38,329 bases of DNA from a virus: UHGV virus genome UHGV-1488451. One strand, 5' to 3'. A model generated the notes under the pieces. It was not told the DNA's origin. It saw only the letters and a list, made by a program, of their open reading frames with translations, and searched no databases. Below are positions 1,161 to 30,574 of the stretch, piece by piece. Numbering within the stretch: position 1 is the stretch's first letter; every line of letters begins with the position of its first letter. The translations under genes and the position numbers were made by a program.

Positions 1161-1535
1161 ATGAGACACAAAGACTGGGTAGAAAACCTTATTGGCCCCG
1201 ACTCCATGCGCACAGCAGCAGCCAAACTTGGCCTATCCCCCGGCGCAGTGTCCCAGCAGATTAGCCGTGGAAGTTTGAAGCCAGACATGGTGATCGCGCT
1301 TTGCCGCGCTTATGGGCGGTCACCGATTGATGGGCTTGTAGAGACCGGGTTTCTTGAGCGGTTCGAGGCGGGCGCAGCTAGCCCTGCTTCGGCGCTTAGG
1401 GAGGCGACGAATCAGCAGATTCTTGGTGAGATTATGCGGCGTTCCGATGCTGATGCGGTGCGGCTATTTAGGGCTGAGGATGAGGATGTGGCGGTGTCGT
1501 CGCAGGTGAGGGCGGATGGTCCTTACAGTGATTGA
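1161..1535 (+). CDS. Immunity repressor-like HTH DNA-binding protein
   Basis: 124 aa with the HTH-like segment MRTAAAKLGLSPGAVSQQISRGSLKPDMVIALCRAYG. It is divergent from the early array and upstream of the xis/int module. A possible TTGCAT-18-TACGCT promoter would make the mRNA leaderless, which is speculative. Confidence 0.65.
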   Translation: MRHKDWVENLIGPDSMRTAAAKLGLSPGAVSQQISRGSLKPDMVIALCRAYGRSPIDGLVETGFLERFEAGAASPASALREATNQQILGEIMRRSDADAVRLFRAEDEDVAVSSQVRADGPYSD

Positions 1536-1577
1536 CTGTAGTTACCCCTTTATTGGTGGGGTTGCTGAACTGCCATC

Positions 1578-1606
1578 TTGTTAATTGCAGAGTGGCGCTG
1601 TAATAT
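1578..1606 (+). promoter_or_regulatory. Near-consensus promoter TTGTTA-17 nt-TAATAT upstream of the moron-like cassette
   Basis: ttgtta lies at 1578-1583, a 17-nt spacer follows, and taatat lies at 1601-1606. The element sits in a locally AT-rich patch after the repressor stop. Confidence 0.5.
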
Positions 1607-1664
1607 AAATCTTGTAAGGCAAACAAGCCTCACGCCCACCTCAAACCCGAAAGGACCAAGACCA

Positions 1665-2000
1665 ATGACCACCATCACCCTCAACAACCTCGACTGGAAC
1701 ATCGCCCCCGCTGAATGGGGCATCGCATACGGCGAAATGGCAAGCCTCCCCACAGAAGAATCCACCCACAACGGCCCACAGTTCATTGTCGATTTCGATC
1801 TTGACGGCACCCGCAAAGCACGCCTCGCAGTAGACCCAACCATTGCTGGAATGAGCCGCGAAAAGGGCATGGCATTCAGCGACGACACCAACGATTGGCC
1901 AGTACTCGATGCACTGTTTGGGCGCGAACAATGGCAGCAATGGCTTGCTGACAAGACCGAGGAAATGCGCGCCCTAGACTCCGAAGACCTCGACGACTAA
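1665..2000 (+). CDS. Hypothetical acidic protein (111 aa), lysogeny-region cargo
   Basis: ATG at 1665 is preceded by aaaggaccaagacca (SD AAAGGA). The track ORF at 1578 extends upstream over the promoter. I recognise no family. Confidence 0.65.
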   Translation: MTTITLNNLDWNIAPAEWGIAYGEMASLPTEESTHNGPQFIVDFDLDGTRKARLAVDPTIAGMSREKGMAFSDDTNDWPVLDALFGREQWQQWLADKTEEMRALDSEDLDD

Positions 2001-2014
2001 CCACCATGCAAACC

Positions 2015-2034
2015 CCGGGGGCTTCGGCCCCTGG
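2015..2034 (+). terminator. Stable hairpin with UUCG tetraloop after the 111-aa ORF (no clear U-tract)
   Basis: ccgggggc-ttcg-gcccctgg forms an 8-bp stem including one G-U pair. It is followed by attaagg, so terminator function is doubtful. Confidence 0.35.
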
Positions 2035-2049
2035 ATTAAGGAACCAACA

Positions 2050-2346
2050 ATGAACACCCCCTACACCTTCAAGCACGTCATGTCAGGACGCTGGGAAGTC
2101 ATCCACAAAGGCAAAGCATTCGCAGTCATCGAGAGAAGCACCTGCTATTCCTCAAAAGACGGCATCATGGAATCAGCTGAATTGTGGGTAATCATTGACC
2201 CCGTAACTGAAATTCACCAGCAAGGGAAACTCCTGAACACCCTCTACCCGACTGAGTGGGGGCACCGCACCTACCGCGAGGCAGCAGCCACTGCCTGGGA
2301 AAACTACCAGAAATACGGCGCACCTGTTCCCATCGGACGAAACTAA
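2050..2346 (+). CDS. Hypothetical protein (98 aa), lysogeny-region cargo
   Basis: ORF with SD aaggaa 6 nt upstream of the ATG. I recognise no family. Confidence 0.65.
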   Translation: MNTPYTFKHVMSGRWEVIHKGKAFAVIERSTCYSSKDGIMESAELWVIIDPVTEIHQQGKLLNTLYPTEWGHRTYREAAATAWENYQKYGAPVPIGRN

Positions 2347-2353
2347 ACCAGAC

Positions 2354-2377
2354 CCCCGCCACCATGCGGGGTTTCAT
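2354..2377 (+). terminator. Hairpin plus T-run after the 98-aa ORF
   Basis: ccccgc (2354-2359) pairs with gcgggg (2366-2371) across the loop caccat, followed by tttcat. Confidence 0.5.
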
Positions 2378-2392
2378 GAAAAGGAAGCAATA

Positions 2393-2557
2393 ATGAACTG
2401 CGATATTCTTATCCTCGTTGTTATTATATCGAACTTAGCCATGCTGGCGGTATTATATCCGCGCGAAATGGATAGGGTACTCGATTCGTATATAGAAACT
2501 ATCCGCAATTGGATTCAGGCTATCTGCAAAATTTACAGGAAGGTGCACCGTGGATAA
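2393..2557 (+). CDS. Small AT-rich ORF encoding a 54-aa predicted single-pass membrane peptide
   Basis: It is not in the ORF track because it is under 60 aa. ATG 2393 follows aaaaggaagcaata (SD AAGGAAG). The product is MNCDILILVVIISNLAMLAVLYPREMDRVLDSYIETIRNWIQAICKIYRKVHRG, with a hydrophobic N-terminus and basic C-terminus. My hand count gives about 41 percent G+C (68/165), far below the flanks. Confidence 0.55.
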   Translation: MNCDILILVVIISNLAMLAVLYPREMDRVLDSYIETIRNWIQAICKIYRKVHRG

Positions 2558-2659
2558 TCAAACCCGAAACTCTGATGGTGTTTCTCGCCACAATCCCGCT
2601 TTGCCCACCAGTTCCCCGGCGGAGCGCGGGCGCATGGTTTATGATCAGGGGTGCCGCGT

Positions 2660-2893
2660 ATGACCACCCCGCTCGTCGAAATCACGCTACCCGGCGGCGG
2701 GGTGGCCTGGTCCATCACCGCAGTGCTTGACCACACCGGCCTATCACAATCATCATTCACCGCATACGTTGCACGCGGACAAGCCCCCGCCCCCACCCAT
2801 CATGTTGAGCGCACTAGGCTATGGGACGCTAAGGAAATCAAAGCCTGGTGGGCAACCCGCCCCGGAAAACCCGGCCGCCCCGCACGAACCTAA
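2660..2893 (+). CDS. xis: AlpA/excisionase-family HTH protein, likely Xis
   Basis: TGLSQSSFTAYVARGQAPAPTHHVERTRLWDAKEIKAWW matches the AlpA/Xis pattern. It lies immediately upstream of int on the same strand. ATG 2660 is preferred over the track GTG at 2651. Confidence 0.65.
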   Translation: MTTPLVEITLPGGGVAWSITAVLDHTGLSQSSFTAYVARGQAPAPTHHVERTRLWDAKEIKAWWATRPGKPGRPART

Positions 2894-2896
2894 CCC

Positions 2897-2926
2897 AGCC
2901 CCCACCCCGCACGGTGGGGGCTTTCC
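2897..2926 (+). terminator. Hairpin (10-bp stem) plus TTTCC after xis-like gene
   Basis: agcccccacc (2897-2906) pairs with ggtgggggct (2913-2922). A second hairpin, tccgcat/atgcgga, lies at 2924-2946. Confidence 0.5.
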
Positions 2927-3010
2927 GCATGACAAAACAATGCGGACACAAAACCCCCAATAATTAAATAAAAACCACATCTGACCTGCAACAATGCAAG
3001 GACAAAAACA

Positions 3011-4135
3011 ATGGCATCAATCAAACGATATGACACCGCCAAAGGAACAAAATGGCGCGTCCAATACCGCACCCCAGACGGCAAAAGCCGCACCAAAACC
3101 GGATTCCGCACCAAAAGCGAAGCCGAAAGATGGGTGGCCACACACACCACCTCCATCATCAATGGCACCTGGGTTGACCCCAACGCAGGCAACATAACCA
3201 TCCAGGCCCTCGGCACACGATGGATGGAAACCCGCACCCACCTGAAACCCTCAACAGCACGCGTCGAAGCCCTCGACTACAAAAACCACGTCCTCCCACA
3301 CTGGGGGCACCGGCGCATCAAAACTATCAAACCGTCGGAAGTGCAAGCCTGGGTGTCAGCCAGCGCCCAATCACCCTCAACCACCAGGCACCACCATGCG
3401 ATCTTGTCGAAGATTCTAGACATGGCCGTCCTCGACAACCTCATACCCGCGAACCCGGCTAAAAGCGTCACCCTGCCCCGCAAGAACAACCCAACAAAGG
3501 TGTACCTCACCATCAGCCAATTGAAGCGCCTAGCGGACGAGGCAACGGTTCGGGGTGAGCTGATCTGGCTGTTGGGAACCACTGGCCTTAGGTGGGGTGA
3601 GGCCGCTGGCTTGCAGGCGCAAGACTTGGACCCGCTGAACGGGCGCATCAGGGTGGCGAGGAACGCAGTAACGGTAGGGGGCGAGGTGGTTGTCGGAACC
3701 CCGAAAACTCATGAGCGGCGCACAGTGGCTTGCCCTGGGCATGTGATGGGGATGCTTGAAGATGCGGCACGTGGTAAGCCGCGCACCGGGTGGTTGTGGG
3801 AGTCGCCTGCGGGCGGGCCTATGCGGCTTCCGGGGAAGGGTTCTTTTTTTCATTCGGCGTTGGGGCGCGTGCGCGCCGAAGACCCGTCGTTTCCTTCGTT
3901 GACTATTCATGGTCTTAGGCATGTGGCAGCCGGACTTTTAGTTTCGGCGGGGGCGAATGTGAAGGTGGTGCAAAAGCAGCTTGGACACAAGTCTGCGGCT
4001 ATGACGTTGGATGTGTATGCGGAGTTGTTTGACGATGACTTGGATGCGGTGCGTGGGGCGTTGGATGCTTTGGTGGGTTCTTTGGGGAATGTCGTCAAAT
4101 TGTCGTCAAATCGGGGTTTTGGTGACGCGGTTTAG
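3011..4135 (+). CDS. int: Tyrosine integrase (phage integrase family)
   Basis: 374 aa with an N-terminal SAM-like/arm-binding region (KWRVQYRTPDGKSRTKTGFRTKSEAERW). The C-terminal catalytic motifs are LRWGEA...HGLRHVAAGLL...LGHKSAAMTLDVYAELF. Confidence 0.95.
   Translation: MASIKRYDTAKGTKWRVQYRTPDGKSRTKTGFRTKSEAERWVATHTTSIINGTWVDPNAGNITIQALGTRWMETRTHLKPSTARVEALDYKNHVLPHWGHRRIKTIKPSEVQAWVSASAQSPSTTRHHHAILSKILDMAVLDNLIPANPAKSVTLPRKNNPTKVYLTISQLKRLADEATVRGELIWLLGTTGLRWGEAAGLQAQDLDPLNGRIRVARNAVTVGGEVVVGTPKTHERRTVACPGHVMGMLEDAARGKPRTGWLWESPAGGPMRLPGKGSFFHSALGRVRAEDPSFPSLTIHGLRHVAAGLLVSAGANVKVVQKQLGHKSAAMTLDVYAELFDDDLDAVRGALDALVGSLGNVVKLSSNRGFGDAV
4088..4110 (+). repeat. Arm-type repeat copy 1: aatgtcgtcaaattgtcgtcaaa (two tandem TGTCGTCAAA motifs), inside the int 3' end
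   Basis: Exact 23-bp match to 4298-4320. Confidence 0.85.
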
Positions 4136-4156
4136 GGGTTTGACCTTGGGTTTTTT

Positions 4157-4184
4157 TGGTGCCCCCAGTCGGACTCGAACCGAC
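4157..4184 (-). other. tRNA 3'-end fragment (T-arm + acceptor 3' strand + ACCA), presumed attP core; not a functional tRNA gene
   Basis: The minus strand reads gtcgg-ttcgagt-ccgac tgggggc acca. No matching 5' acceptor strand (gccccca) occurs about 70 nt upstream. Confidence 0.75.
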
Positions 4185-4297
4185 TTTCTGGGTTTTGTCC
4201 ATACCGTTGTTTACCTGCATGTTTGCTGGTCAAGTGCGGTTTTTGCCGTGTAGCAACCCTGTTGAATTTGCGTGTATTTACGTGTGTTTTAGTGTGA

Positions 4298-4320
4298 AAT
4301 GTCGTCAAATTGTCGTCAAA
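4298..4320 (+). repeat. Arm-type repeat copy 2: aatgtcgtcaaattgtcgtcaaa
   Basis: Exact 23-bp match to 4088-4110, on the other side of the tRNA-like core. Confidence 0.85.
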
Positions 4321-4340
4321 AATGACCCCACCCCGAAACG

Positions 4341-4383
4341 CAAAAAACGCCCCCGCAACCACCAACAACGGTGGCGCGGGGGC
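4341..4383 (-). terminator. Strong rho-independent terminator ending the late/lysis operon
   Basis: The minus strand reads gcccccgc..ccacc..ggtgg..gcgggggc followed by gttttttgcg. The stems are at 4349-4356 and 4376-4383. Confidence 0.8.
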
Positions 4384-4399
4384 GCATCTTCACAAGGGG

Positions 4400-4912
4400 C
4401 TAAACCTCATCACGAGCCTGCTTAGCAAGCTCCCGAATGTCCGCCTGAATTATCTGCGGAATCACCGGCAAATCATCCGGACGCTTACCCGGCCACTTCC
4501 TCGACGCCCATTCCTCACGAGCCGCGATATGCTTCACAGCCGTGCGGTGACGTTGGTTGATGTCCGTCATGCGGGTGGTCAGGTCGGTGATCTGGGTGTC
4601 TTGATTGGTTAGCTTGGTGTGCATGTCTGTGACTTGCTGTGCGAGCCGGTCATGTTGCGCGGTCACGGTGTTCAGGGTGGTTTCCATCACCCCGACGGTG
4701 GCGGTTAGGTTGTTCACAATTTGTTGTGACTCGTCCAAGACTAGGCGTCTTTCCTCCACCTTCCCGTCAGCGTGCCCTTTGCGGTGCGCTGTCCACGCGG
4801 CAAGAATCACACTCACAGCGGTGGCGATGCCACCCACCCAGCCAACGATCTCACTGATGCTCACGGCCTCAGCCACCTGCGGTGGCGGCATTTGTGCCGC
4901 CAACCACCACAT
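4400..4912 (-). CDS. Membrane-anchored coiled-coil protein, last gene of the lysis cassette (function unknown)
   Basis: 170 aa with an N-terminal TM segment (IVGWVGGIATAVSVILAAW) and a long heptad-like T/Q-rich helix. It follows the holin. Confidence 0.7.
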   Translation of the reverse strand: MWWLAAQMPPPQVAEAVSISEIVGWVGGIATAVSVILAAWTAHRKGHADGKVEERRLVLDESQQIVNNLTATVGVMETTLNTVTAQHDRLAQQVTDMHTKLTNQDTQITDLTTRMTDINQRHRTAVKHIAAREEWASRKWPGKRPDDLPVIPQIIQADIRELAKQARDEV

Positions 4913-5264: not shown

Positions 5265-6743
5265 TTATTTTCCCTTCATGGTTTGGATTTGCTGTTGAAT
5301 GTTGGCGATGTCGCGCCGGGCGGCGGCGACACCATCCACGAGGGTGAGGTTTTCACCCTTCGAGTTCTGGCCCAACTGCGGCCAGGGGCCAAGCTGACCG
5401 CTGATGTATTCCACTTGTTGGATTAGTCGGTCAAGCTTTTTGTTGGTTTCCTGCGCCGCGACTTTGGCGTCGTTCAGCGCGGCGACTTGCTCATGTCCGA
5501 ATAGGGACACTGGTCCTCCTTTGATTTGGATGTTTGGGTTTGCGGGTGCGGTCGAGTAGGCGTAGCCCTTCGGCAGTATCAGCGAGGCCAGCTGGTCAAG
5601 GCTGATCCAGTAGCCGTATGGGCTGAACCATGAATCCGCTATCCACACGGCACGCCCCTGGTCACCGTCTCGATATCCCATTGCGGCAATGTAGTGGTAC
5701 ACCACGCCCCCGCCATAGGCTGGGGAGACGGAGCCGTACACGCCGCGCGGGTAGTTCGACGGTGGAGCAACGATGTTGCAGATGACACCATGACCAGCTT
5801 TGACTGAGGTTTTGATGTCGTTCCACAGGCGTTCCTGCTGGTCCGCCGTTGGTGGGTCATTAGGCATCTCTACTGACTGGTATTCAGCCCCTGGGATGTG
5901 TTTGTTCAGCACCTTCGGGAAGAACCCAATCCAGTCTGTGCCGTTGACTGTGGTGCCCAGCTCCACAGCGAAATCGCCTTCCGGCTTGAGAACACCGGTG
6001 GCGGCGAACACCACAGTCTGGGTGGATGCGGGCCCGCAATTGTAGTAGGTGTCCTGTACCACGGCCTCACGGCTGTAGGGGATTTCTACTTCTTCACCAG
6101 CCTGGTTGACCAGGGTTTCACCCGCGCCGCCGCCGGTTGAACCTTCAGGAAGCAGTGACTCCCCCAAGGTCAGGCAGAAGTCGAAGCGGCGTTGCCGGTC
6201 GTCGATTCCGTTGGTTCCTCCATTGATCGCGCGGGTTGCGGCTTTGAATCCTTCGTACCGCTGCCAGCCCTCTAGGTTCGGGTCTGCTGCCTGGTCAGCA
6301 AATTCATTGAGCAGTGGCCGAGCCACCACCCAGTACCAAGCAGCAGCCATGAATCCCCACTTCGGGGTGGCCACCAAATCCGGGTCATTCACAAACAGGT
6401 TCGGGTCGCTGGTGATTCCACGATCATGGCACCATCGACCGAACGACCCGTAGTTGTTCCGTCCCGTGAGCTGTATGGGGCCGCGACCATGGAAACGTGC
6501 ACCATCACCAGGGTAGACGTTGCCGAGATCGCCACGGCCCTCATAGTTGCTGGTGAAGTAGTCATACCCGCCAAGTTCCTGCATGAATTGCAGGCCCACG
6601 GACTCATGTCCGATCTGCGCGCACCACATTGCTGCGCGCGCCACGGTCGTGATGTCCGCGAACTTCATGGCTTCATTCATGGGTTGCACAAACGCCGAAT
6701 CGACGTTGGAACCCATTGCTCGGTTAAGTGTTCCTAGGTCCAT
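5265..6743 (-). CDS. Multidomain endolysin: N-terminal GH19 (chitinase-like) muramidase plus papain/C39-like cysteine peptidase plus C-terminal tail
   Basis: GH19 motifs are QIGHESVGL and FHGRGPIQLTGRNNY. The peptidase motifs are YYNCGPAS and a later YHYIAAMGY His region. ATG 6743 follows aaaggag; the track GTG at 6749 is too close to the SD. Confidence 0.88.
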   Translation of the reverse strand: MDLGTLNRAMGSNVDSAFVQPMNEAMKFADITTVARAAMWCAQIGHESVGLQFMQELGGYDYFTSNYEGRGDLGNVYPGDGARFHGRGPIQLTGRNNYGSFGRWCHDRGITSDPNLFVNDPDLVATPKWGFMAAAWYWVVARPLLNEFADQAADPNLEGWQRYEGFKAATRAINGGTNGIDDRQRRFDFCLTLGESLLPEGSTGGGAGETLVNQAGEEVEIPYSREAVVQDTYYNCGPASTQTVVFAATGVLKPEGDFAVELGTTVNGTDWIGFFPKVLNKHIPGAEYQSVEMPNDPPTADQQERLWNDIKTSVKAGHGVICNIVAPPSNYPRGVYGSVSPAYGGGVVYHYIAAMGYRDGDQGRAVWIADSWFSPYGYWISLDQLASLILPKGYAYSTAPANPNIQIKGGPVSLFGHEQVAALNDAKVAAQETNKKLDRLIQQVEYISGQLGPWPQLGQNSKGENLTLVDGVAAARRDIANIQQQIQTMKGK

Positions 6744-6772: not shown

Positions 6773-9760
6773 CTACCCGTATTCGATGGGGAGGATGTAG
6801 TTTCCTTCACGACGCACCCATGCGATGGTTTCGCGCAGTACATCGGGGTCCGGTGCGTTGTCCCACGGGTTGTTCCATTCGGATTCACTACCCAGCTCAC
6901 CGGTGAATGTGTCAGTGGTGAGCCAGATTTGCCCAACGTTCGATACGCTGGCACGCTTGAGTACTTGTTTGGCCTGCTCAACATCGTTTACGTTGTGTAC
7001 CGCGTGCCAGAACCTCAGCGGGTTATGCCCTCTGTAGTGCCCAGGACAAATAGTCTCGTCGTCAATGTAGCGTTGCGCGGATTGTTCGAAAGCCATGAGC
7101 GTATCCGCCGCACCCAGCATGCCCTCAACAGTGTTGCCGCCCGGGTTCGCTGTGATGTAGAAGGCGCTTCCGTACTTTTTGCGGAGTTCCTGGTACAGCG
7201 TTACATAGCCTTGCACTTTGTTTGCCTGGTCGCCCCAGCCATTGACAGCCTCATCAAGGAACACACCGTGAATACGGTGACGCCCGTACCAGTCTATGAA
7301 CTGGTCGATCTCCTTGATGATCTCGGAGTGGCTGCGACCGCCCCACTGGGTGAGCACGTAGGCGATGTTGACCATGCCGAGCGCCGCAGTGGTGGTTAGC
7401 GTCAACTCGTAGTCGTTCTCTTTCTTCGTGCCCACACCACTATGAGGGTTGGCGATGAACGGCCCTGCGATCTGCGGATTGTGAAGGTAGTTGGCGGTGA
7501 CGTCGCGCGCGTGCTCAACCGCCTCCCAATATTTAGGCCAAGAATAGGTGACCGGCGCAAGCCTGCGTGCCCCACGCGTCCACAACTGGAATGGGTGAAT
7601 ATGCAAACCAGGGGTAGGCCCCTCGCGGGTTTCCAACGCTTTCAACAAAGGCGAAGCCTCACTAGCCGCCGGAGCAGGCGCGGGCGCGGGAGGAAGTTTC
7701 TTCAACCGCTCATCAACAACCTCACCAGCCAAAACCCGAACACGCTCCTCATCAGGCTTATCAAGAAGCTTCTTCCACTCCTCAATCGTGATGATCATAT
7801 CCGGGCGCGCCGGGTTGAAATTCCCATTGAAGATGAAATCCTTCTTCACAGTGCCTTCCTGGGCGTTGTTACCAATGATGGTGTTGCCGCCAACCTGCTC
7901 CTTCTTCGTTCCCTTGCGCAACACAATCTTCACCATGTGCGCGCAGTCAGCCTTGGGGTTGTCCTGCGCGTAGCTGTTGCCAATGACGGTGCAGCCGATG
8001 GGGTCTTCCAGTGCGACGGCCGCCCAGTCTTTAGGGCCGTCTGCGGGTGGGCGTAGTTGGTTTTCAAGGCCCACGTTCCAGATGTCGTTGCCTTGGATTT
8101 TTGTGCCGTGCCCGGAGCAGGCGATGCCGTGGTTCCAGGTTTCGCCGATGGTGTTGGCCATGACCACGCTGTACCCGCCCACGCTGATTCCGTTGTCCTT
8201 GGACACGGGGAGCATGTTGCCGGTGATGTTCGTGCGGTAGCACTTGATGGTGAAGCCGATAGGCTCGAAAGCGATTGACTGGTTCTCGGCCATGACCACA
8301 CTGTTCCCAGACACGAGGGTGTCTTTCGGTGCGCCCTGAATCAATGTCTCAGGCCGCAAAGCCGGGTCGGTAGTATCACGCCCACCAATGCCCATGCCGC
8401 AGGATGCGCGGCGAATCTGGTTGCCAATGATCTGGTTGCGGTTCGACTCGTCTTTGATCATGATGCCGAACCCGGATGCACCCTCCTGCGCCGTGTTCTG
8501 CTTCAAACCGCTACCATCAGTCCAGCAGTTCAGAACCAGGGAATCGTTCGTTCCGTTGCCGGTTGGCTTCTCTTTCCGCACAAACCCCTGCAAAAGGAAC
8601 GCATTTGCGCCGGAGTTCATGACCCCGATCTGAACCATCTTCACGTAATCAGCGTTCGTGATCTGCAGCGCCGTGGCAGGCCGCTCACCCGTCACCCAGT
8701 CCATGTCGATAACAAACCCGGACATGTAGCCGCGCCGCAGATTGCCGCCACTGGTTGACTGCATGGCGTTCTTCCCGACGCCGCGTTTCATCTTCAACAC
8801 CGTGGCGTCACCCTGCCCCATCATGACCTTGCCGGAAAGCTTGTCGAGGTTAATCGTGTTCGACAACCCCCACTCACCAGCAGGCAACTGGATTACCTTC
8901 TTCGACGCGTCGTTAATGGCTGCCTGCAAAGCAGTGGTGATGTCAGTGCCCTCGGCTGGTTTGACGTTGATGACACCAGCATCACCTGCGGCTGTGACGA
9001 TTTCCTTGATCTGGGTTTCCACCAGCTTCGTAACAGCCTTGTTGACTTCCTCGGAGATCTTGTTTCCAACTGCCTGCTGGATAGCCTCAGGTGTGGGGGC
9101 CGCGCCACCGCCGCCTTGCGGGTGTTGCCGGAAGTATTCTTCCACGGCCTTGCCGATTTTCTCCGGGTCAACGCCTTCGCCTGCGGGGAGCTTCCCGATT
9201 TGCCTAGTGATCTCGTCACGCACCAGGCCGCTGAGGTCGTTCATTGCCTGCTGCACAGCGTCCTGGGAGGCTGCGCTTGCGGCTTGTTTCGCCTGGTTGA
9301 CGGCTTCGCGTGCTTCGTCTCGTGCGGCGATGGTGTCTTTCTTCACCTGCTCAACCGTGCTTGCCGCCTGCTGTGCTTGGGTGACGGCTTCTTCGGCTTT
9401 GCGTTTGCTTTCCGACGCGGCGGTGGCTGCCTGCTGCGCTTCACCCACGACAGCGGGCGGGTACTCTGTTTGCGCGCCGATCAGGTTGGCTAGGTTCGCC
9501 TCACCTGATTCAGGCAGTGTCACAGTCCACGAGGTTCCATGCACAGTGCCGCCTTCAAGCGTCACTGTGACAGGCCCGGGGAACATGTCAGGGCTGCGGA
9601 AAACCCCACCGGTGCCTTCCATGTGGATTCGCCGCAGTTCCCGCGTGACCACCGTTCCACCCTCGACACGTTCACCCGATGACTGCAGCACCACATAGCA
9701 GTCAGGGCCGTCAAAAGGTTGCTTGGTGATGCTCTTCAAATCACCAGTCAAAATAGTCAT
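6773..9760 (-). CDS. Tail fibre/spike with coiled coil, pectate-lyase-like beta-helix and C-terminal spherulin-4 (GH135-like) domain
   Basis: The central region (VIQLPAGEWGLSNTINL...MGQGDATVLKM... with repeated G-N-x-I/V turns) resembles a right-handed beta-helix. The C-terminal part (FIANPHSGVG...VNIAYVLTQWGGRS...IDWYGRHRIHGVFLDE) fits the Spherulation-specific family 4 pattern. Start ATG 9760 follows taggaaggtgcta; the track ATG at 9781 abuts a terminator T-run and lacks an SD. Confidence 0.8.
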   Translation of the reverse strand: MTILTGDLKSITKQPFDGPDCYVVLQSSGERVEGGTVVTRELRRIHMEGTGGVFRSPDMFPGPVTVTLEGGTVHGTSWTVTLPESGEANLANLIGAQTEYPPAVVGEAQQAATAASESKRKAEEAVTQAQQAASTVEQVKKDTIAARDEAREAVNQAKQAASAASQDAVQQAMNDLSGLVRDEITRQIGKLPAGEGVDPEKIGKAVEEYFRQHPQGGGGAAPTPEAIQQAVGNKISEEVNKAVTKLVETQIKEIVTAAGDAGVINVKPAEGTDITTALQAAINDASKKVIQLPAGEWGLSNTINLDKLSGKVMMGQGDATVLKMKRGVGKNAMQSTSGGNLRRGYMSGFVIDMDWVTGERPATALQITNADYVKMVQIGVMNSGANAFLLQGFVRKEKPTGNGTNDSLVLNCWTDGSGLKQNTAQEGASGFGIMIKDESNRNQIIGNQIRRASCGMGIGGRDTTDPALRPETLIQGAPKDTLVSGNSVVMAENQSIAFEPIGFTIKCYRTNITGNMLPVSKDNGISVGGYSVVMANTIGETWNHGIACSGHGTKIQGNDIWNVGLENQLRPPADGPKDWAAVALEDPIGCTVIGNSYAQDNPKADCAHMVKIVLRKGTKKEQVGGNTIIGNNAQEGTVKKDFIFNGNFNPARPDMIITIEEWKKLLDKPDEERVRVLAGEVVDERLKKLPPAPAPAPAASEASPLLKALETREGPTPGLHIHPFQLWTRGARRLAPVTYSWPKYWEAVEHARDVTANYLHNPQIAGPFIANPHSGVGTKKENDYELTLTTTAALGMVNIAYVLTQWGGRSHSEIIKEIDQFIDWYGRHRIHGVFLDEAVNGWGDQANKVQGYVTLYQELRKKYGSAFYITANPGGNTVEGMLGAADTLMAFEQSAQRYIDDETICPGHYRGHNPLRFWHAVHNVNDVEQAKQVLKRASVSNVGQIWLTTDTFTGELGSESEWNNPWDNAPDPDVLRETIAWVRREGNYILPIEYG

Positions 9761-9781
9761 TAGCACCTTCCTAAAGCGCAT

Positions 9782-9816
9782 AAAAACAAGGCACCCAACT
9801 TGATTAGTGAGTGCCT
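9782..9816 (-). terminator. Hairpin plus T-run between the minor tail genes and the fibre gene
   Basis: The minus strand reads aggcac-(16 nt)-gtgcct tgttttta. The stems are at 9789-9794 and 9811-9816. Confidence 0.55.
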
Positions 9817-9842
9817 AAAATAATGAGTAGAAACAATGCGGG

Positions 9843-10568
9843 CTAGCGCGTACGCCCCGTAGCCGTTCCTTTGCCGCCGTCAATCTCCCTATTCAGGTGC
9901 CACACCATCAAGTGGTTTCTGTCAGCACCACCGTAGAACTCACGAGACAAAGATATATTGTGCGTGATAACTACCTGTACCGTGTAGCCAACATCAGGCA
10001 CAGCCACCACGGTGGACAAGATGGAATGGTCCTTCTCACGCGACGTGATGTAGCCACGCTTGACGTGCCACATTTCGCCGGTGCGAGTTTTCACTTCGAT
10101 CTGCCATTCCACCACATGGGAAGATGCGATAGCGATAAGGCCAGACACGCTAATCATGGCATCGATACGCCACACGCCTTTATCCATGAGTCGGATAGCA
10201 TGGGGAATGCGCTCAAACTCGACGCCGCGCGAACCCACAAGCATTTCGTCAAAAGGAAAAACACCATGAATACTCTTCTCCCCGCTGGACATGAACAGCG
10301 TGCCGGTCTCCTCCAGAGGGGATTTGAGTTCTTCGATGCGGCTTTGCAGCGCAGCCTGTCCATCGCGGTAGACTTGCGAAGCGCTAACAATTGGCTTGAA
10401 AATCGCCCCGCCGATGCCGCGTAGGGCGTCGCCGATGCCTTTGATGAGGCCGTTAAAACCCTGGGCTAGCAGGTTGCCCATGTCGCCGCCTGCGTGTTCC
10501 AGGGCTTTGCCCATTGTTTGTGGGGAGCCGTCCCATTTGGGTTGGTACTTGTCTGGCGAAATGCCCAT
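9843..10568 (-). CDS. Minor tail/baseplate-region protein (unknown function)
   Basis: 241-aa ORF in the tail module with a G-rich N-terminus and a beta-rich C-terminal half. I recognise no family. Confidence 0.7.
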   Translation of the reverse strand: MGISPDKYQPKWDGSPQTMGKALEHAGGDMGNLLAQGFNGLIKGIGDALRGIGGAIFKPIVSASQVYRDGQAALQSRIEELKSPLEETGTLFMSSGEKSIHGVFPFDEMLVGSRGVEFERIPHAIRLMDKGVWRIDAMISVSGLIAIASSHVVEWQIEVKTRTGEMWHVKRGYITSREKDHSILSTVVAVPDVGYTVQVVITHNISLSREFYGGADRNHLMVWHLNREIDGGKGTATGRTR

Positions 10569-10570
10569 GA

Positions 10571-11146
10571 CTATTCCTCGCTACCCTTTTCGTCACTGTT
10601 ATTTTTTTGCAGTTCCGCCAACAACAAAGCCCGCTGCTTCGCCGTCAACTTCGACACATCAATCGGAGCCGCAGCATCCTCCACAACCTGCACGGCACCT
10701 TGCCGCTCCTCCAAAGCACCAATCCAACGCCCATCCTCATTCGGGGAACCAACACCACCCAAAGCATCAAACTTGATCTGCGGCCCAACATGCACAGTCC
10801 ACGACCAAACCCCCTCAGGCAAAGTGCCCTTCATCAACCCAGTACGCGGGTCAAGCGACAACCCCGGAGGCAACACCGGACACCACACCGCAGCCAACGA
10901 ACCACCAGGAACCAACTCATCAACCTCACGCGAATCATCCCACCCACGCGAATACTCCACCGTAGTTGGCTCCTGATCATGCAACTTCACCCCCACAAGA
11001 TCAAACAAAAACCTGCACAAATCATTAATCAGATCAATGTCCATGTTGAACCCCAGGGGCTTAATCAACAAAGGCGCATACGGGTGCATGCCCTCAGGCA
11101 CCGGATAAGGCCACATGAAATCCAACTGCTTATTACCAGTAGACAC
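10571..11146 (-). CDS. Minor tail protein with putative Ig-like (He_PIG-type) segment
   Basis: 191 aa. The LPPGLSLDPRTGLMKGTLP motif is typical of putative Ig domains. The GTG start has the SD agaaggg. Confidence 0.7.
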   Translation of the reverse strand: MSTGNKQLDFMWPYPVPEGMHPYAPLLIKPLGFNMDIDLINDLCRFLFDLVGVKLHDQEPTTVEYSRGWDDSREVDELVPGGSLAAVWCPVLPPGLSLDPRTGLMKGTLPEGVWSWTVHVGPQIKFDALGGVGSPNEDGRWIGALEERQGAVQVVEDAAAPIDVSKLTAKQRALLLAELQKNNSDEKGSEE

Positions 11147-11158
11147 AACAAAACCCTT

Positions 11159-12757
11159 CTAAGGAATCAAAGTCTTAATACGATCAGTCGCCGCCGCCAA
11201 AGTCTTCAACGACCGCTCCAACGACCGTGCCGAAGACTCACGCAAACGCGGGTCACCCAACCCAATATCAACATCATCACCACCACGACCAGGCTTAATC
11301 GTCACCGACTGAACAAACGTCGCAAAGTTCACACCACGCGAACGAAACACCGCTTGATCACCCACACGATAATCACGCCCAAACAAATACGGGGAACCGT
11401 CACCAGCCTCAAAAGCCACCGACACTTTCCCCTGCGTCTCCTGCAAAGCGGTAAACGCTTGCTGCAGCGTCGACAAGCTGAAACCCTCACCAGGCTTCAC
11501 CAAACCCCGGTACCGGTATTTACCTAGCGCGTCCTCACGTGACCACGCCCGGAACTCCGACCAAGCGAACAGTTTGTCCTTCAAAGCGTTAGCTTGCAAC
11601 GTGCCCAGGAACGCGCCACCAGCAGCAGACAACGCGGCAAACGGGGGGAACAACGCCCCAATCGCCGCGCCGATACCCTGCCACAACGCCTGCGAACCAG
11701 CCGCAATGAGACTGTTCACAATCTGCGGGGACTTGCCCCCCACGATCACGGCACTATCAGTGGCCTTGCGTAGAACAACCTTCGACGACACGCCCCGCAT
11801 GTGGTCACCATCCCACACGCACCAGGCTTTAGGGTTGTCACCATTGAATGCGGTGTCGTCGATAACAATGGCCTTTGACACATTGTCACCAGCGATTTTC
11901 TCCTTCACGCCCCTGATGACGTCGCCAACCCCGCCGGTGGACGACGCAAAGTTCCTGGCCTTCACGTCAATCACAATGGTGGGGTTCTTTAACGTGGCAT
12001 GGTTCCTGAACGGCTGCGGGTCACCGGGTAGCCAGAGTTCAGCGACCAGTTGCAGCCCGGCCGCATCCAACGTTGCTTTGAACATGTCCCCAGCAATATT
12101 GAATCGACTGTCAAGCACAGTCCATTCGGTGTTTTCCGACTCGTGCACAGGGTTCACAATCAACGGCCACCACTCAGGCCGCAGGTCACGCCATGTTGAC
12201 GCTGACCATACATCCCAGTTCTTCAGCAACTGCGGCTGAAAATCCTTAGCCAGGTTGCGGAACAGGTAGTTTTTGATAACCCTGAGCGAATCACCAGCCT
12301 GCACATCCGACCATTTCAGCTGAGCCACAATCGGCGCGCCTGGTGATGCCCACAACGGCAAGTGATTAAACAGCTCCCACAAGCCTTCACCATGCACTGT
12401 GAACACGTCACCGTCAGAATCTGAGTTGATCTCCACCTCAACGACACGGTATGCGAAACGATAGTGCTTCGTTTCAACAACCACCCAAAGGGATTCATTC
12501 AACACACGGTTCAGGTCAGGGGTGTTGGTGTCCTCATCCGCGAACATCAACGTCCGCACCGCCGGGTGAGTGCCAGGCAAATCAATCTGCATCTTGCCCG
12601 GCGCGTTGCACTCGTCGCCAAACTGCGTGCCCTCGAGAAACCCAGACAGCGACACCAAAGGCTCCATGTTCTTATCGAACAGCCACACAGTGCGGCCACC
12701 GGAATCATGCACGCTTTTCTGCGACTTGCCCCAAAGCTCCCATGCGAAAGCCACCAA
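11159..12757 (-). CDS. Tail-tip protein (Tal / prophage-tail family, position-based)
   Basis: 532 aa, immediately after the Dit-like gene. The size and position are typical of a siphovirus Tal N-terminal structural module. Confidence 0.7.
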   Translation of the reverse strand: MVAFAWELWGKSQKSVHDSGGRTVWLFDKNMEPLVSLSGFLEGTQFGDECNAPGKMQIDLPGTHPAVRTLMFADEDTNTPDLNRVLNESLWVVVETKHYRFAYRVVEVEINSDSDGDVFTVHGEGLWELFNHLPLWASPGAPIVAQLKWSDVQAGDSLRVIKNYLFRNLAKDFQPQLLKNWDVWSASTWRDLRPEWWPLIVNPVHESENTEWTVLDSRFNIAGDMFKATLDAAGLQLVAELWLPGDPQPFRNHATLKNPTIVIDVKARNFASSTGGVGDVIRGVKEKIAGDNVSKAIVIDDTAFNGDNPKAWCVWDGDHMRGVSSKVVLRKATDSAVIVGGKSPQIVNSLIAAGSQALWQGIGAAIGALFPPFAALSAAGGAFLGTLQANALKDKLFAWSEFRAWSREDALGKYRYRGLVKPGEGFSLSTLQQAFTALQETQGKVSVAFEAGDGSPYLFGRDYRVGDQAVFRSRGVNFATFVQSVTIKPGRGGDDVDIGLGDPRLRESSARSLERSLKTLAAATDRIKTLIP

Positions 12758-12758
12758 A

Positions 12759-13544
12759 TCACCTCCACATCGACGTGAACAATGGGGTCACCATGCCGGT
12801 AGCCCCACCACCAAAAACCCACGTGGCCCTACCACCAGGGGGGATAGGCTGCGGAAACACACGCCCCCGCAACCTACGCCACAAATCCGGGGCGGGCTCA
12901 CCACCAACCGTGATCATTGAGGCTTTAGCCGGGTCAGTGTCCAACACCGCCACCCTGTTACCAGTGTGGGGCAATTCCACCTGCCCCACACCAGGGGCGG
13001 TCACCGTTGTAACCCCGTTGCCCTGCCACCTGACGCGCGGCCACAAAGGCAAATCACCAGGGTTATGAATCACAACCTCCCCAGTGTGGCGGGTAGTTTC
13101 ACCACGCCAACACCCCTCATAGCAGACAACAGGCACATCAACCGTGAACGACCGCAAACCCAACGTGGCGGGAGAAACCCCAGGGTCAGGCACACGGTCT
13201 TTCACCAACAACCTGCACGACAATGCTGTCTTACCGGGCACAACAACCCGCAAAACAGACTCATCAAACGGAGTCACATTCCGCACAAACAACCGCCACG
13301 ACTCCGCAAGCGGAGCATCCTCAGCATGGAAACCCAGTTTCAGGGTGCCCTCCATCTTGTCGATGCTCCACCCAATCGGCGTGGCACCCACCTGTGTTGT
13401 CGTTGCCCTGGTCTTCACGTCAACCTTCGCAGACAATTCAGGTGGCCCCATCAACCACATGCCCCTACGGCCATGCGCATACCGGGTGAGTGCCCACGTC
13501 ACCCCCGCACTATCGTCAAGTGAAACGTTGTACAGGGATTCCAT
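12759..13544 (-). CDS. Distal tail protein (Dit-like)
   Basis: About 261 aa, directly downstream of the tape measure. ATG 13544 has the SD aaggag 9 nt upstream. Confidence 0.7.
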   Translation of the reverse strand: MESLYNVSLDDSAGVTWALTRYAHGRRGMWLMGPPELSAKVDVKTRATTTQVGATPIGWSIDKMEGTLKLGFHAEDAPLAESWRLFVRNVTPFDESVLRVVVPGKTALSCRLLVKDRVPDPGVSPATLGLRSFTVDVPVVCYEGCWRGETTRHTGEVVIHNPGDLPLWPRVRWQGNGVTTVTAPGVGQVELPHTGNRVAVLDTDPAKASMITVGGEPAPDLWRRLRGRVFPQPIPPGGRATWVFGGGATGMVTPLFTSMWR

Positions 13545-13560
13545 GAACACTCACTCCTTG

Positions 13561-16500
13561 CTATGTGAGAACAGTGGGCGCGCCACCAACATGACGCTCA
13601 CCCTTGATCTTTTTCAGGTCTTTGGTGTTCACCTCGACCTTGCCCTCCACAGCCTCCACACGCTGCCGCAGGACTTCCTCACCATCCACGTTCACCACCA
13701 GGGTTAGCTGACCACCATCGCCCTTATCGGCGATTTGTTTCAGCACACCCCACTGGTCGTTAGTGAGAATCGCTTCCGGCTTGCCGGACAGGTTCACCGC
13801 CGCACCCTCATGAGGCAGCACACCGCCCTGGTCATACAGGCGTGTACCACCACGGGCACGCTGACCAGCCCAACCAGCGAGGTTCACCAACCCGTGTGCC
13901 GCGTCGATGTCCTCCATCAGGCTAGCCAAACCACCAAACCCATCATCACCACCATTAAAAGCGGCACCGAGTTCACCCCACGCGGCACCAGCATCAGCGG
14001 CCTTGTTGACAAGGAACTTGGCGCGCTCCTCACCAACAACACCAGCTGTTGCGCCGTACCCGTAGTCGCCACCGTTGAAGGCGGTCGTGAACTCCTCGGC
14101 CACGTTCGCGGCCAGGCTGTTGCGCACCATGCGGCCGAAATTACCGGTGGCGTTCACCAGTGTTTTCGCGTGCGTGTCGCCGATCAGCTGGCCGAGCCCG
14201 CCGAAGCCGTCATCACCGCCGTGGAACGCTGTTGTGAGTTCTTCACGTGCAGCATCCACGGGGTTGATCTGCGGCCCTGTTGGGTTAATGTCCTGCGGGT
14301 TTTCCGGTTTTGCGTCGGCAACTGCGGCTGCGGCACCATCAACCCCGGAAGCAGCGGTGTTAGAATCGCCTGCCTGTTTGGCCTGCTCTTCTTCCTTCTT
14401 CTTCTGGTCGCGGGTGAACCAATCCGGTACAGGCGCAAGCTTGTCCGGTGGGGTTGTGGCCAGCTTCTTGATCAGGCCGTTTCCGCCGCCGATGAACTCG
14501 AAGAACGCGTCTTGTGCAAGTGCGTCCGGGGACTTGTTGCCAAGGGTTTTCCAGAACACTTCGTTGGCGATGCCAGCGCCGTAGGCCCCGGCGTCTTGCC
14601 AGCGTTTTACTTCGTTCTGGGCGTTGACGATTCCTTGGTGTGCGGCTAGTGCCGCGACTACTGCGGGGTGGTCTTCTTCGAGGTGGGTTGCGTCTGCGCC
14701 GAGGTATTCGCCGGTGTTGATGACGTGCATGAGTGCGTCTGCGGCTTGTTTCCAGGCTGCGGGGCCTTTGTTGCCGAGTTCGACGAGGGCTGGGATTGCG
14801 TTTCGGAGGTCTCCGAAGTTGCGTTCCAGCATGTCCCACTGTTCAGCGGTTAGGACAGCCTCTGGCTTTCCTGTGTGGTTCCAGTAGGTGCCGAACCCTC
14901 CTGGGGTGGGTTTGAGCCAGCCGCCGGAATCGTAGCCATGTCCATGACCCCACATTGTGGTCAAATCAGTGCCGTACCTGCTCTTGTAGTAGCGGAGCGC
15001 GGCGTTCATATTGGCCCACGGGTCACGCCTATCGTTCGGCAATTCGGGGTCACGGTTGGCTGCGAATGTGCCGGGGATGATCTGCAGCAAGCCAACGCCC
15101 GCACTGTCGCCAGTTCCGTTGACGTCGACAATCTGCTGTGCAATACCCGGGTTGCCACCAGACTCAGACTGAATCTGGGCCAGCATGGCGTTGACCTGCG
15201 CCGGGTCATCAGCATTAAAGCCTTGACGACGCATCGCGGCCATTGCCATTTCGCGCCACGACTCGGCATTACCAGCCACACCAGCGGCACCGGAGAAGGT
15301 GCCCACCTTCGACTTGATAAAGTCCCAAGCCTTGTCAGCGAGGGTTTTAGCGATAGCTCCGGGGAGCTTGCCGAAGTCGCCGTGCTGCTCCTTGCCTGGG
15401 AAGTCGCCGATCTTATTGATCGCCGCGTCCCACAGGCCCTTGACCATTGCTCCGAGGTTGAAGCCGCCACCGCCACCAGCGCCACCTGAAATGAACTCCC
15501 CAAGGAACTCCTTCAAAGTGTAGGTGTGGTTGAACAGGCTGTTATCGGAGCCACGTGCCGCACCGCCGATCTGCACGCCGTGATCGCCCGCCGATTCCAA
15601 GTTAACCCCGTCGATAGTGCCCGCCATGTGGCCGTTCTCGCCGCCGCCTTTGCCGGACAGCACGCCAATGGTCACGCGGCCAGACAAGCCGGGGACGAAC
15701 CCGAAGTTACCAAAGTTACTTTCGGTGTTGAAGATACGTCCTGCGCGCAGCGAACCGCCGTTCAGGAACTGCGTAATGCCTGACCACAGGCCCGAGCAAT
15801 CCCAGCTGGGGTTGCCGGTGCCCCCATACTGATAGGGCTTGCCGTGCTCAGATTTGAGTTCATTGAACAAGGCCGCAATGCGCTCAGTCAGGTGATCGCG
15901 CTGATCAGTGCCGCCATTAGGGAACACGCCGCCCTTAGCGAACGCAAGGGCACGGTACACGCCGCCGCGCGCGAACGCGGCACCCTCACCCAGCATCTTC
16001 TTGACGCGGCTCACGCCACCACCAATGGCGGCTTTGTTCAGCGCATCAACAGCAGGCTTACCGCCCATAGCCTTAGTGACCTCTGGGCGCATGATCGCCT
16101 CACCGCCGGACAAGCCAAGCAGCCCGCCAGTGGGGCTGTAGAAATGGTGAATATCCTTACCAGGACTGTAACCAGGCAGGACACCACCGGTTGCGAAATG
16201 ATGCTCTGGGAGTTCACCAAGGCCAACCAGCTTGGCCACCGTGTTCCAGGCTTTCCTGATGCCACCGTTGTAGACCGTGTTGACCACGAACTCAACAGGT
16301 TTTTTCGTCTTGTCCTTGATGCCGTCCCAGATGCGGCCGATATTATCGACGGTCTGACTGAACCAGTCTTTGACTTTCGTCAACCCGTCTTTCAGCCCGT
16401 TGAACACCGGGTGCACCACATTATCAGCAACCCAGCGTATGCCGTTGCCGAGGGCTTCCCACGTTGGTTTGATGTAGCCGTTCCAGATGCTGGAGAAGAA

Positions 16501-24940: not shown

Positions 24941-25629
24941 TAGTGTTTCTCCTTTTCCAAGATCATGAGGCGGGCACCCAGCTTGTTCAGGGCGCCCTGG
25001 TTATCGCCGCTCTTCTTGGCGGCATGAGAAAACCCCGGGGGTGGTGTTCCCTCGGGGCTAGTGTCGTTTCCGGTCAGCGCGTCACGCATTGATTTCAGCA
25101 TCAACGCCATTGCCTTCGACATTTCCGCGCCGGACTCGGCGGCTTTCACCGCGAGCACTTCGGTTTCCTGGTTCGCGCCGATAGGAACGACACTGACCTC
25201 GTACAGGCGCACCTTGCGAATCTCGAAAACCCAATTGTCGTTGTCTTTCATTTCCGCGCCTTCGACAACATCAAACGCGAAACTCATTTGCGACAAGCGG
25301 CGCTCTTTCAGCAGACGGTAAACCTGGCTAGCTTTCTCATTATCCAGGTCAAGCTTCGCACGGATTTTCAAACCATGATCATCCTCAACAGCCTCAACCA
25401 CCGTGCCAATATTGCTGAACGGGTCTCGGAAATCATGGCCATACAGCAAAGGCAGCTGATTACCGGATTCCTCCCACTCCTTCAACGTGTCCGCAAACGC
25501 GCCCTTACGGATAACATCACCGTAAGAATCCACATTATCGAACACACTTGCATAGGCGACAATCTCGCCCGCCTCAACCTCAACATCATCAGGCTCTTTA
25601 ACCCGAACCTTCAAATCCTTCAACTTCAT
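24940..25629 (-). CDS. Prohead (HK97-type, S78) maturation protease, internal-start product
   Basis: ATG 25629 is preceded by gagaaaggaggtgttgccctt, a strong SD. The product is MKLKDLKVRVKEPDD...AYASVFDNVDSYGDVIRKGAF...LLYGHD... Confidence 0.88.
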   Translation of the reverse strand: MKLKDLKVRVKEPDDVEVEAGEIVAYASVFDNVDSYGDVIRKGAFADTLKEWEESGNQLPLLYGHDFRDPFSNIGTVVEAVEDDHGLKIRAKLDLDNEKASQVYRLLKERRLSQMSFAFDVVEGAEMKDNDNWVFEIRKVRLYEVSVVPIGANQETEVLAVKAAESGAEMSKAMALMLKSMRDALTGNDTSPEGTPPPGFSHAAKKSGDNQGALNKLGARLMILEKEKH

Positions 25630-27310: not shown

Positions 27311-27323
27311 CAGAAATCACCTC

Positions 27324-29649: not shown

Positions 29650-29669
29650 GGGGTTTTGGGGGTTGATAT

Positions 29670-29700: not shown

Positions 29701-29740
29701 TTGTCTGCGACTGAGTTTAGCAGTGTGGTTGCCCGTTTTG

Positions 29741-30558: not shown

Positions 30559-30574
30559 GCGATGATGGTGAGGG

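Follow-up and report, generated by a model that had tools for sequence, protein, structure and literature searches.

The small open reading frames (ORFs) lying between the repressor and integrase genes of the phage genome UHGV-1488451, analysed here over its full length of 38,329 nucleotides (the window), form, as comparison with related phages shows, two independently mobile modules rather than one cassette. The region, at 1578-2557, had been described in the original prediction as a single three-ORF cassette, bounded by a promoter and by hairpins, placed before the genes for an excisionase-like protein (xis) and an integrase. That description does not hold: ORF1 and ORF2 travel together, while ORF3 is a separate insertion, joined to a 37-codon ORF and to xis. 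The three ORFs themselves lie on the same strand exactly as had been described, and encode an acidic protein of 111 amino acids (aa; ORF1, 1665..2000, plus strand), a 98-aa protein (ORF2, 2050..2346, plus strand) and a 54-aa membrane peptide (ORF3, 2393-2557); each is provided with a good Shine-Dalgarno sequence. As a whole, the region would be of a composite moron type, in which module A (~1578-2374), made of a promoter, a conserved 5' untranslated region (UTR), ORF1, a hairpin termed hp1, ORF2 and a second hairpin, hp2, and module B (2386-2557) were acquired independently.

Three phage backgrounds were distinguished by a tblastn search of the whole neighbourhood against all loci compared (indicated by L and a number). 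Phages of type 1 are window-like, with repressor, ORF1, ORF2, ORF3, xis and integrase in this order. Those of type 2, represented by contigs of ~51 kb, carry an unrelated integrase (26% identity) and a putative phage attachment site (attP), followed by ORF1, ORF2, seven more plus-strand genes and the lysis cassette; ORF1-ORF2 are here located beyond attP, far from the immunity region. In type 3, an ORF2 homologue (47% identity) and an ORF1 homologue (58%) are separated by ~2 kb; a repeat of ~170 bp upstream and a hairpin-bearing one of ~75 bp downstream frame both of them alike (in L054, 5519-5691 and 7857-8025 upstream, 5973-6048 and 8343-8419 downstream). The upstream repeat of L054 runs through the ribosome-binding site and the start codon: two different genes are set in duplicated expression frames. 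ORF1 and ORF2 are therefore both present in three phage types, which differ in integrase and immunity region, and ORF2 is accompanied by ORF1 in every compared locus reaching far enough. The co-occurrence proposed as a check for the three ORFs was thus found for the first two, whereas ORF3 moves independently. Homology between types 1 and 2 stops just after hp2, at about 2366-2374.

The limits of the ORF3 module (2386..2557, plus strand; Shine-Dalgarno sequence and ORF3) were drawn by blastn and by base composition. The blastn match to the type-2 locus L052 (11211-11378) covers only window positions 2386-2553. In type-2 phages, the ORF3 homologue is found ~2.5 kb from ORF2, overlapping the start of a 139-aa helix-turn-helix (HTH) gene, and ORF3 is absent from some ORF1-ORF2 carriers. 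Its GC content is 0.42-0.45, and its third-position A+C content is 0.45, versus 0.72-0.73 in ORF1 and ORF2. Such composition changes occur at the module borders defined by homology, and therefore give independent support to the reading of two modules; with both third-position A+C and GC changing at these borders, the region also has the character of a variable and compositionally distinct insert, as expected of a moron.

The ORF3 product (isoelectric point, pI, 8.8) has an N-terminal hydrophobic helix of ~20 residues and a basic C-terminus ending in KIYRKVHRG, and is predicted to be a single-pass membrane peptide. A diverged homologue keeps the same design, with a membrane helix, an acidic stretch and the C-terminus IRKIYRKVHRG. 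The ratio of non-synonymous to synonymous substitution rates (dN/dS) is 0.3-0.8 for ORF3, calculated on very few sites, but the length of the peptide is kept in relatives and, with the diverged homologue, speaks for a real gene here too. The 37-codon ORF (2550..2663, plus strand) starts with a GTG overlapping the ORF3 stop (GTGGATAA) and ends with a stop overlapping the xis ATG (ATGA). Because of these overlaps, ORF3 looks attached to xis, and not to ORF1-ORF2. The 37-codon frame is open in the window and in three type-1 relatives, despite substitutions, and may be either a coupling ORF or a micro-protein. In module B, ORF3 would have been inserted before xis, and apparently coupled to its translation through this frame.

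The coding nature of the two genes of module A was evaluated by their substitution pattern. When compared to relatives, dN/dS ranged between 0.08 and 0.26 for ORF1 and between 0.09 and 0.36 for ORF2. As these values are well below 1, both ORFs are taken as coding, and the pattern indicates real genes under purifying selection. Their frames are kept in more than 20 contigs from the three phage types, down to 47-58% identity. It could be argued that the ORFs are chance frames or decaying remnants, since they belong to no known family, and since hp2 and the promoter, taken individually, are within chance; with such dN/dS values, with frames kept over this range of identity and with an ORF1 family of 51 clusters, this explanation is extremely unlikely.

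ORF1 encodes a soluble protein with a pI of 4.06 (23 D/E vs 8 K/R), an acidic C-terminal tail and the motif DWPxLDxxFGRxxWQxFL. The ORF2 product has a pI of 7.9, and is restricted to three oral phage lineages. No membrane segment and no enzymatic motif were found in either protein. Close homologues, all metagenomic, amount to 21 for ORF1 and 6 for ORF2. A profile search over 1.8 billion representatives extended the ORF1 family to at least 51 clusters, whose members are ~100 aa long and acidic, and share the motif and a D/E-rich C-terminus. Some of them are tandem duplications; others are longer, because of N- or C-terminal extensions or fusions, and no recognisable domain was found in the extra parts. 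ORF2 and ORF3 are missing from most of the phages with an ORF1-family gene.

None of the three products could be assigned to a recognised family, as had been anticipated: comparison with Pfam, PHROGs, PADLOC and NCBIfam gave nothing usable. No match was obtained by a sequence-profile search of PDB, and a structure search of BFVD returned only an uncharacterised protein. The remote homology search that had been proposed thus revealed, in the family libraries and in the PDB profile search, no housekeeping phage homology for the three products. By tblastn, no match was found in INPHARED for ORF1, ORF2 and one distant family member, nor in the PLSDB plasmids for ORF1 and the same distant member; scanning with the ORF1 pattern detected no relative in 185,579 species genomes, and none in JGI metagenome contigs. 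For 32 members of the ORF1 family, there were no Pfam matches and only one marginal PHROG match; in the searches with these members and with the three products taken together, sub-threshold matches such as those to Iron_traffic, to MACPF_D3 and to one PHROG (E 0.001) were rejected. On these grounds the ORF1 family appears to be an undescribed one, of actinobacterial temperate phages.

The genes surrounding distant members of the family show a recurrent arrangement. In 6 of 8 distant loci, the gene next downstream of the ORF1-like one encodes an HTH (L056, L057/58, L060, L069, L070, with two pairs, and L079), and the pair typically has the integrase gene on one side and the lysis cassette on the other, or is placed at a prophage end. 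Two XRE-type paralogues of the type-2 phages, of 142 aa and 139 aa, each closing a group of small genes, are homologous to the HTH proteins of L056 and L060. The first group is composed of ORF1, ORF2 and a 116-aa gene, followed by the 142-aa HTH; the second of 112-aa, 148-aa and 217-aa genes and the ORF3 homologue, followed by the 139-aa HTH. Both are preceded by the same promoter (TAGACA, 17 nt, TATATT or TATAGT), and a 22-bp palindrome, CTACTAGACATATGTCGCGTAG, overlaps the TAGACA -35 box. Each of the five type-2 loci (L012, at 9909-9930 and 11662-11683, L047, L049, L050 and L052) contains exactly two copies of this palindrome, one upstream of ORF1 and one upstream of the second small-gene operon, ending in the paralogous HTH gene. 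In type 3, an 18-bp palindrome, GCGTGGCCAC(G/A)C, lies over the -35 box upstream of the ORF2 homologue, of the ORF1 homologue and of a small operon, with one further site; the small operon is read as containing an HTH gene, whose product has no Pfam match and weakly resembles the HTH region at the C-terminus of the L069 protein. A palindrome common to all ORF1-like genes was not found, such elements being present only in type 2, type 3 and L069.

A duplicated 5' region similar to that of type 3 was also observed in L070, at 4245 and 5680, before a 119-aa gene and before the second ORF1-like gene. The 119-aa gene sits just upstream of one ORF1-like gene. A 119-aa gene beside a distant ORF1-like gene was considered as a possible ORF2 relative and rejected, as the two are not related.

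A similar layout is known for acr-aca operons, in which interchangeable small cargo genes are associated with a conserved terminal HTH gene, the promoter being overlapped by an inverted repeat (PMC6765145, PMC9410906). The sister phages share with them compact operons in which small genes of no known family are exchanged, a terminal HTH and an inverted repeat over the -35 box, and reuse the same promoter/operator for a second operon with different cargo. ORF1 adds a small and very acidic lead protein, located in a (pro)phage accessory hot spot, and in the window too the small cargo is of no known family, with no match to Pfam, PHROG or NCBIfam for ORF1-ORF3. By analogy, ORF1, with ORF2, would bind a host or competitor protein stoichiometrically: we infer expression, inhibitor function and the existence of a target. 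The two genes would thus encode accessory small inhibitor proteins following a counter-defence logic, in a module having lost its own regulator. This is the interpretation favoured here, although tentatively, as its probability is judged to fall a little short of even. The operon logic would make acr-aca-type counter-defence or host-takeover factors more likely than defence effectors, and for ORF1/ORF2 counter-defence is considered somewhat more likely than defence. In the window lineage, module A would have lost its HTH partner and operator, and have been placed directly behind the repressor gene; because of this position, its transcription would probably begin at the module's own promoter and/or extend into it from the repressor gene by read-through, with the hairpins serving as attenuators or 3' stabilisers, and not as full terminators.

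Several points weigh against the inhibitor interpretation. The window copy is without a partner HTH and without a clear operator, and differs in this from acr-aca operons: no HTH gene is found directly downstream of the window ORF1, which is followed by ORF2, ORF3 and then xis. Its promoter matches the consensus at 8/12 positions only, and the boundaries of the type-2 operons are deduced from sequence. No similarity in sequence or in reliable fold to Acr, Aca, anti-restriction or defence proteins was found in the general libraries used, no anti-defence library having been searched; homology to known Acr or Aca proteins does not go beyond a generic HTH. An acidic character and a small size are found in other proteins than inhibitors as well, and the intergenic hairpins and the orientation shared with repressor and integrase are untypical of acr loci. 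This co-orientation, together with the position behind the repressor gene, fits lysogenic expression, as in prophage defence genes (PMC6426596).

A bolder version of the same idea would see in the ORF1 family new anti-defence proteins of Corynebacterium-like phages, for example DNA- or protein-mimic inhibitors of CRISPR-Cas or restriction, in the HTH partners a new family of Aca-like XRE-HTH proteins working through palindromic operators, and in ORF2 and the other small genes of the operons further inhibitors, the window copy having escaped its regulator to come under the control of the immunity region; as a whole, this is unlikely. Should the acr-aca-like reading be true, the ORF1 family and its HTH partner would offer a means of locating counter-defence genes, through guilt by association, in phages that infect actinobacteria, oral ones included, for which, to our knowledge, almost none are known; in the sister phages, entire operons of candidate inhibitors would be recognisable from their duplicated promoter/operator. 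Whatever the reading, what is gained for now is modest, and consists of three uncharacterised accessory genes with defined borders, a family and testable regulatory sites.

The HTH partners may also be looked at in a different way. ORF1 and ORF2 are adjacent ~100-aa genes, one acidic and the other near-neutral, always co-occurring, and the order in distant relatives, an ORF1-like gene and then one for an XRE-HTH protein, recalls HigBA-type modules. They might accordingly be regarded as a toxin-antitoxin or abortive-infection pair, stabilising the prophage or killing infected cells. However, neither protein showed a domain or fold of toxins or antitoxins, the ORF1 family is widespread without ORF2, and in type 2 other cargo genes stand between ORF1 and the HTH gene. 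Moreover, the stable hairpin hp1 separates the two genes, and their type-3 homologues, 2 kb apart, have separate promoter repeats and downstream hairpins. Such a pair is considered highly improbable.

The expression signals of module A were analyzed in the window and in the aligned relatives. A candidate sigma-A/sigma-70-type promoter (TTGTTA, 17 nt, TAATAT) is present at 1578..1606, plus strand (-35 at 1578-1583, -10 at 1601-1606), with a predicted transcription start at ~1612-1614 and a resulting ORF1 5' UTR of ~52 nt. The site is found where it had been located, but its definition as near-consensus was overstated, because it agrees with 4+4 = 8/12 consensus positions, and because promoter-like sites in the region are no more numerous than in shuffled sequences (2 found vs 2.7 expected). 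It was not reported by the promoter scan, which was run with a threshold of 9/12 positions. The window promoter gains support from the fact that a -35/-10-like pair occupies the same place in the three phage types: in the alignment, it is equally distant from the ORF1 start in all three backgrounds, the equivalent pair being TAGACA, 17 nt, TATATT in type-2 phages, with type-3 phages likewise having one.

Upstream of ORF1, the three types are alignable from about the -35/-10 pair through the 5' UTR and the ribosome-binding site, and are unrelated further upstream. A 5' UTR block, AAGGCAAACAAGCC ... CCGAAAGGACC (1611..1664, plus strand), which includes the Shine-Dalgarno sequence GAAAGGA, is kept with ORF1 across the three types. 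The window copy retains this 5' UTR and ORF1-ORF2, while its -35 box and spacer differ from those of relatives; no convincing palindrome or operator was found at the window ORF1 promoter.

Over 13 nt, the spacer of this promoter resembles ATTGCAKAGTGRC, which lies upstream of the repressor gene. This resemblance would suit a role of these genes in the control of lysis-lysogeny and excision by the phage, ORF1 modulating an HTH regulator, and ORF3 and the 37-codon ORF tuning xis. The adjacency of ORF1-family genes to HTH genes, which is nearly constant (repressor here, XRE-type elsewhere), and the overlapping starts and stops of ORF3, the 37-codon ORF and xis could be explained in the same way. 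The shared motif, however, is not significant (3 matches vs 3.1 expected), and control of the ORF1 promoter by the CI repressor through it was rejected, as the motif is at chance level. In addition, ORF1-ORF2 are found with unrelated repressors and integrases and, in type 2, far from the immunity region, and most ORF1-family phages do without ORF2 and ORF3. Taken together, a switch-control function is improbable.

A hairpin had been reported after each of the units of the region, and all of them exist. The first, hp1 (2015..2034, plus strand), between ORF1 and ORF2, has an 8-bp GC-rich stem and a UUCG loop (-17.9 kcal/mol, z -2.4). The second, hp2 (2354..2371, plus strand), has a 6-bp stem, CCCCGC...GCGGGG, after ORF2, and is followed by TTTCAT; its folding energy of about -12 kcal/mol is within chance, as indicated by a z of -1.5. 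The third, hp3 (2897..2946, plus strand), is a double hairpin after xis, formed by 2897-2922 and 2924-2946 (-32.1 kcal/mol together, z -6.0). Most type-1 and type-2 relatives have the hp1 stem unchanged, and one type-2 relative differs in it by a single change. In L013 and L047, hp1 is replaced by two other, stronger hairpins, and a stem-loop is therefore retained despite sequence exchange. The right end of the ORF1-ORF2 module coincides with hp2, which is kept in type 1 and in most type-2 relatives.

No T-run follows hp1, hp2 or hp3, whereas the same genome contains a canonical intrinsic terminator on the minus strand at 4343-4392, directly after the lysis cassette and adjoining attP, with a hairpin followed by UUUUUU (-47.5 kcal/mol for the folded 78-nt stretch 4325-4402, z -5.7). 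For this reason, hp1-hp3 can at most be regarded as candidate terminators.

Morons of lambdoid phages are units of promoter, gene and terminator inserted between conserved genes. Module A resembles them in its own promoter-like site, in the trailing hairpins, in its varying positions in related genomes and in a composition unlike that of its flanks. It differs from them because its hairpins are devoid of the U-tract of intrinsic terminators, though the phage has a canonical one elsewhere, and because in relatives the promoter would be operator-controlled, and not constitutive. The moron layout that had been put forward is thus recognisable in the mobility of ORF1-ORF2 as a unit with promoter-like region and hairpins, and less so in the signals, given the 8/12 promoter and the missing U-tracts. 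In kind, the repressor-integrase interval is an ordinary temperate-phage accessory gene region, a slot for such genes within the lysogeny module, as had been proposed.

The upstream border of the region is the gene for a putative CI-type repressor (1161..1535, plus strand) of 124 aa, with an HTH at residues 15-55, which matches PHROG 16278 'HTH DNA binding protein' with an E of 8.5e-22 and, more weakly, repressor PHROGs. Its identity to the CI-like protein of type-2 phages, 102 aa long, is 29%. Between the repressor gene and ORF1, a strong terminator is missing, the one stem found there being weak (z -1.6). Downstream, the excisionase-like HTH protein (xis, 2660..2893, plus strand, 77 aa) matches PHROG 597 (E 3e-12), PHROG 66 'excisionase' (E 3e-5) and, weakly, Phage_AlpA. 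It is followed by the tyrosine integrase (3011..4135, plus strand, 374 aa), with Pfam Phage_integrase, SAM-like and arm-binding domains. The attP site (4083..4320) is composed of two arm-type repeats, ATGTCGTCAAATTGTCGTCAAA, at 4083-4110 and 4293-4320, around a tRNA 3'-end fragment at ~4158-4200, minus strand. The tRNA-end 25-mer is kept in all type-1 relatives, and had no match beyond type-1 phages among the loci compared; an intact tRNA is not present in the window.

This position bears on the role originally assigned to the region, a prophage-expressed defence or superinfection exclusion, in which ORF3 would act at the membrane and ORF1/ORF2 as cytoplasmic sensors or blockers. ORF1-ORF3 share strand and neighbourhood with repressor and integrase, with nothing stronger than the weak stem in between, ORF1 is preceded by a promoter-like site of its own, and ORF3 encodes a small membrane peptide. 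There is also a valid precedent in lysogenically expressed defence genes of actinobacteriophages, located near repressor and integrase or at prophage ends, as in cluster N mycobacteriophages, in Sbash (gp30/gp31) and in the Gordonia phage CarolAnn (PMC6426596, PMC6426606). As in those phages, small genes of unknown function are found here near integrase, repressor and prophage ends, and vary among related phages; the RexAB-like format of Sbash gp30/gp31, a soluble plus a small membrane protein, may be compared to ORF1-ORF3. The comparison is limited by the lack of sequence similarity, by the absence of DUF4747 or RexA-like domains from the window products, and by ORF3 having one membrane helix and being unlinked to ORF1-ORF2 in other phages.

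Superinfection-exclusion genes are also found in the integrase-repressor interval of temperate phages of Gram-positive bacteria, such as lactococcal Sie2009 and Ltp of S. thermophilus TP-J34. Slot and strand, shared with the lysogeny genes, are the same, and a small membrane-associated product would correspond to ORF3. Unlike these, ORF3 has no lipobox, signal peptide or homology, and is coupled to xis, not to the repressor, and ORF1/ORF2 are cytoplasmic.

Of the defence or exclusion proposal, the slot, the strand and the lack of housekeeping homology stand, but the context in relatives points at least as strongly to the opposite role. No PADLOC-DB 2.0 match was obtained for ORF1-ORF3 or for diverged homologues, and the type-2 and type-3 neighbours gave only generic HTH matches. 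ORF1 and ORF2 lack the membrane segments or enzymatic motifs that would favour such a function, ORF3 is coupled to a gene, xis, expected to be silent in lysogens, and the operator-bearing promoters, HTH-ending operons and interchangeable small cargo of relatives are the typical counter-defence layout. Defence or exclusion, though rather unlikely, is on the whole a serious alternative; if true, it would add new exclusion genes of oral Corynebacterium-type prophages.

Judged from its sequence, UHGV-1488451 is the complete circular assembly of a temperate siphophage of ~38 kb, because both window ends overlap via an 18-bp tandem array. The repeat, CGCGTTGCCGGACACCCA, is present in at least 15 copies (38017-38282 and 1-77), within a minus-strand ORF adjoining the immunity region, and the protein carrying it ranges between 200 and 242 aa among near-identical relatives. 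Minus-strand early genes are followed by an intergenic switch region, by plus-strand lysogeny genes with attP and by converging lysis and tail genes. The order on the plus strand is CI-like repressor, ORF1, ORF2, ORF3, excisionase-like gene, tyrosine integrase and attP; ORF1-ORF3 are therefore on the repressor/integrase strand, opposite to all lytic genes.

Proteins of the window are also encoded on ~38-kb contigs from human oral metagenomes, and no near-identical DNA was found among cultured or deposited phages. The host is probably a Corynebacterium-like actinobacterium, because the closest integrase in a genome is that of a Corynebacterium sp. (60% identity) and the endolysin has an Rv3766_C domain. 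A 102-kb contig (L011; NCBI GCA_015473145.1, BNJS01003369.1) contains, at 9600-15500, copies of ORF1, ORF2, ORF3 and lysis genes, split into several frames. The broken frames are likely due to indel errors of long-read assembly rather than to decay, and the contig could hold an integrated prophage, and so identify a host.

The composition changes seen at the module borders are part of a wider pattern. At synonymous and non-coding sites, the coding strand consists almost exclusively of A/C in some segments and of G/T in others, and the genome forms in this way a gene-by-gene mosaic with sharp borders; the bias travels with each gene across phage types. The most extreme segment, at 29370-31200, includes the genes at 29741-30310 and 30575-31108 (RusA), with a third-position A+C of 94-95%; the gene at 10571-11146 has, at third positions, 88% G/T and 12% A+C. 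Other biased segments are located at 25626-28943, 1540-3540 and 3540-4150. Within the integrase gene, third-position A+C flips at ~3540 from 0.78 to 0.25, where the N-terminal domains give way to the catalytic domain; within the repressor gene, it flips at ~1300 from 0.62 in the N-terminal part to 0.15 in the C-terminal part. Both flips suggest that recombination has joined these genes at a domain boundary.

Among close relatives, transitions are roughly symmetric and A-C transversions several-fold commoner than other transversions, an excess that hints at selection against coding-strand G and T, and not at pure deamination. The mosaic could result from a strand-specific deamination history combined with mosaic recombination, or from selection for a G/U-poor (unstructured, palindrome-free) mRNA/DNA. 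No description of an A/C-G/T mosaic of this kind was found in the literature searched. Just past the extreme A+C patch, four copies of a 22-nt repeat, ATTCGGATTCATTTCGCGTTCG, are found at 31923-32010, inside a 395-aa early ORF (31239-32426); they are iteron-like, and may mark a candidate replication origin.

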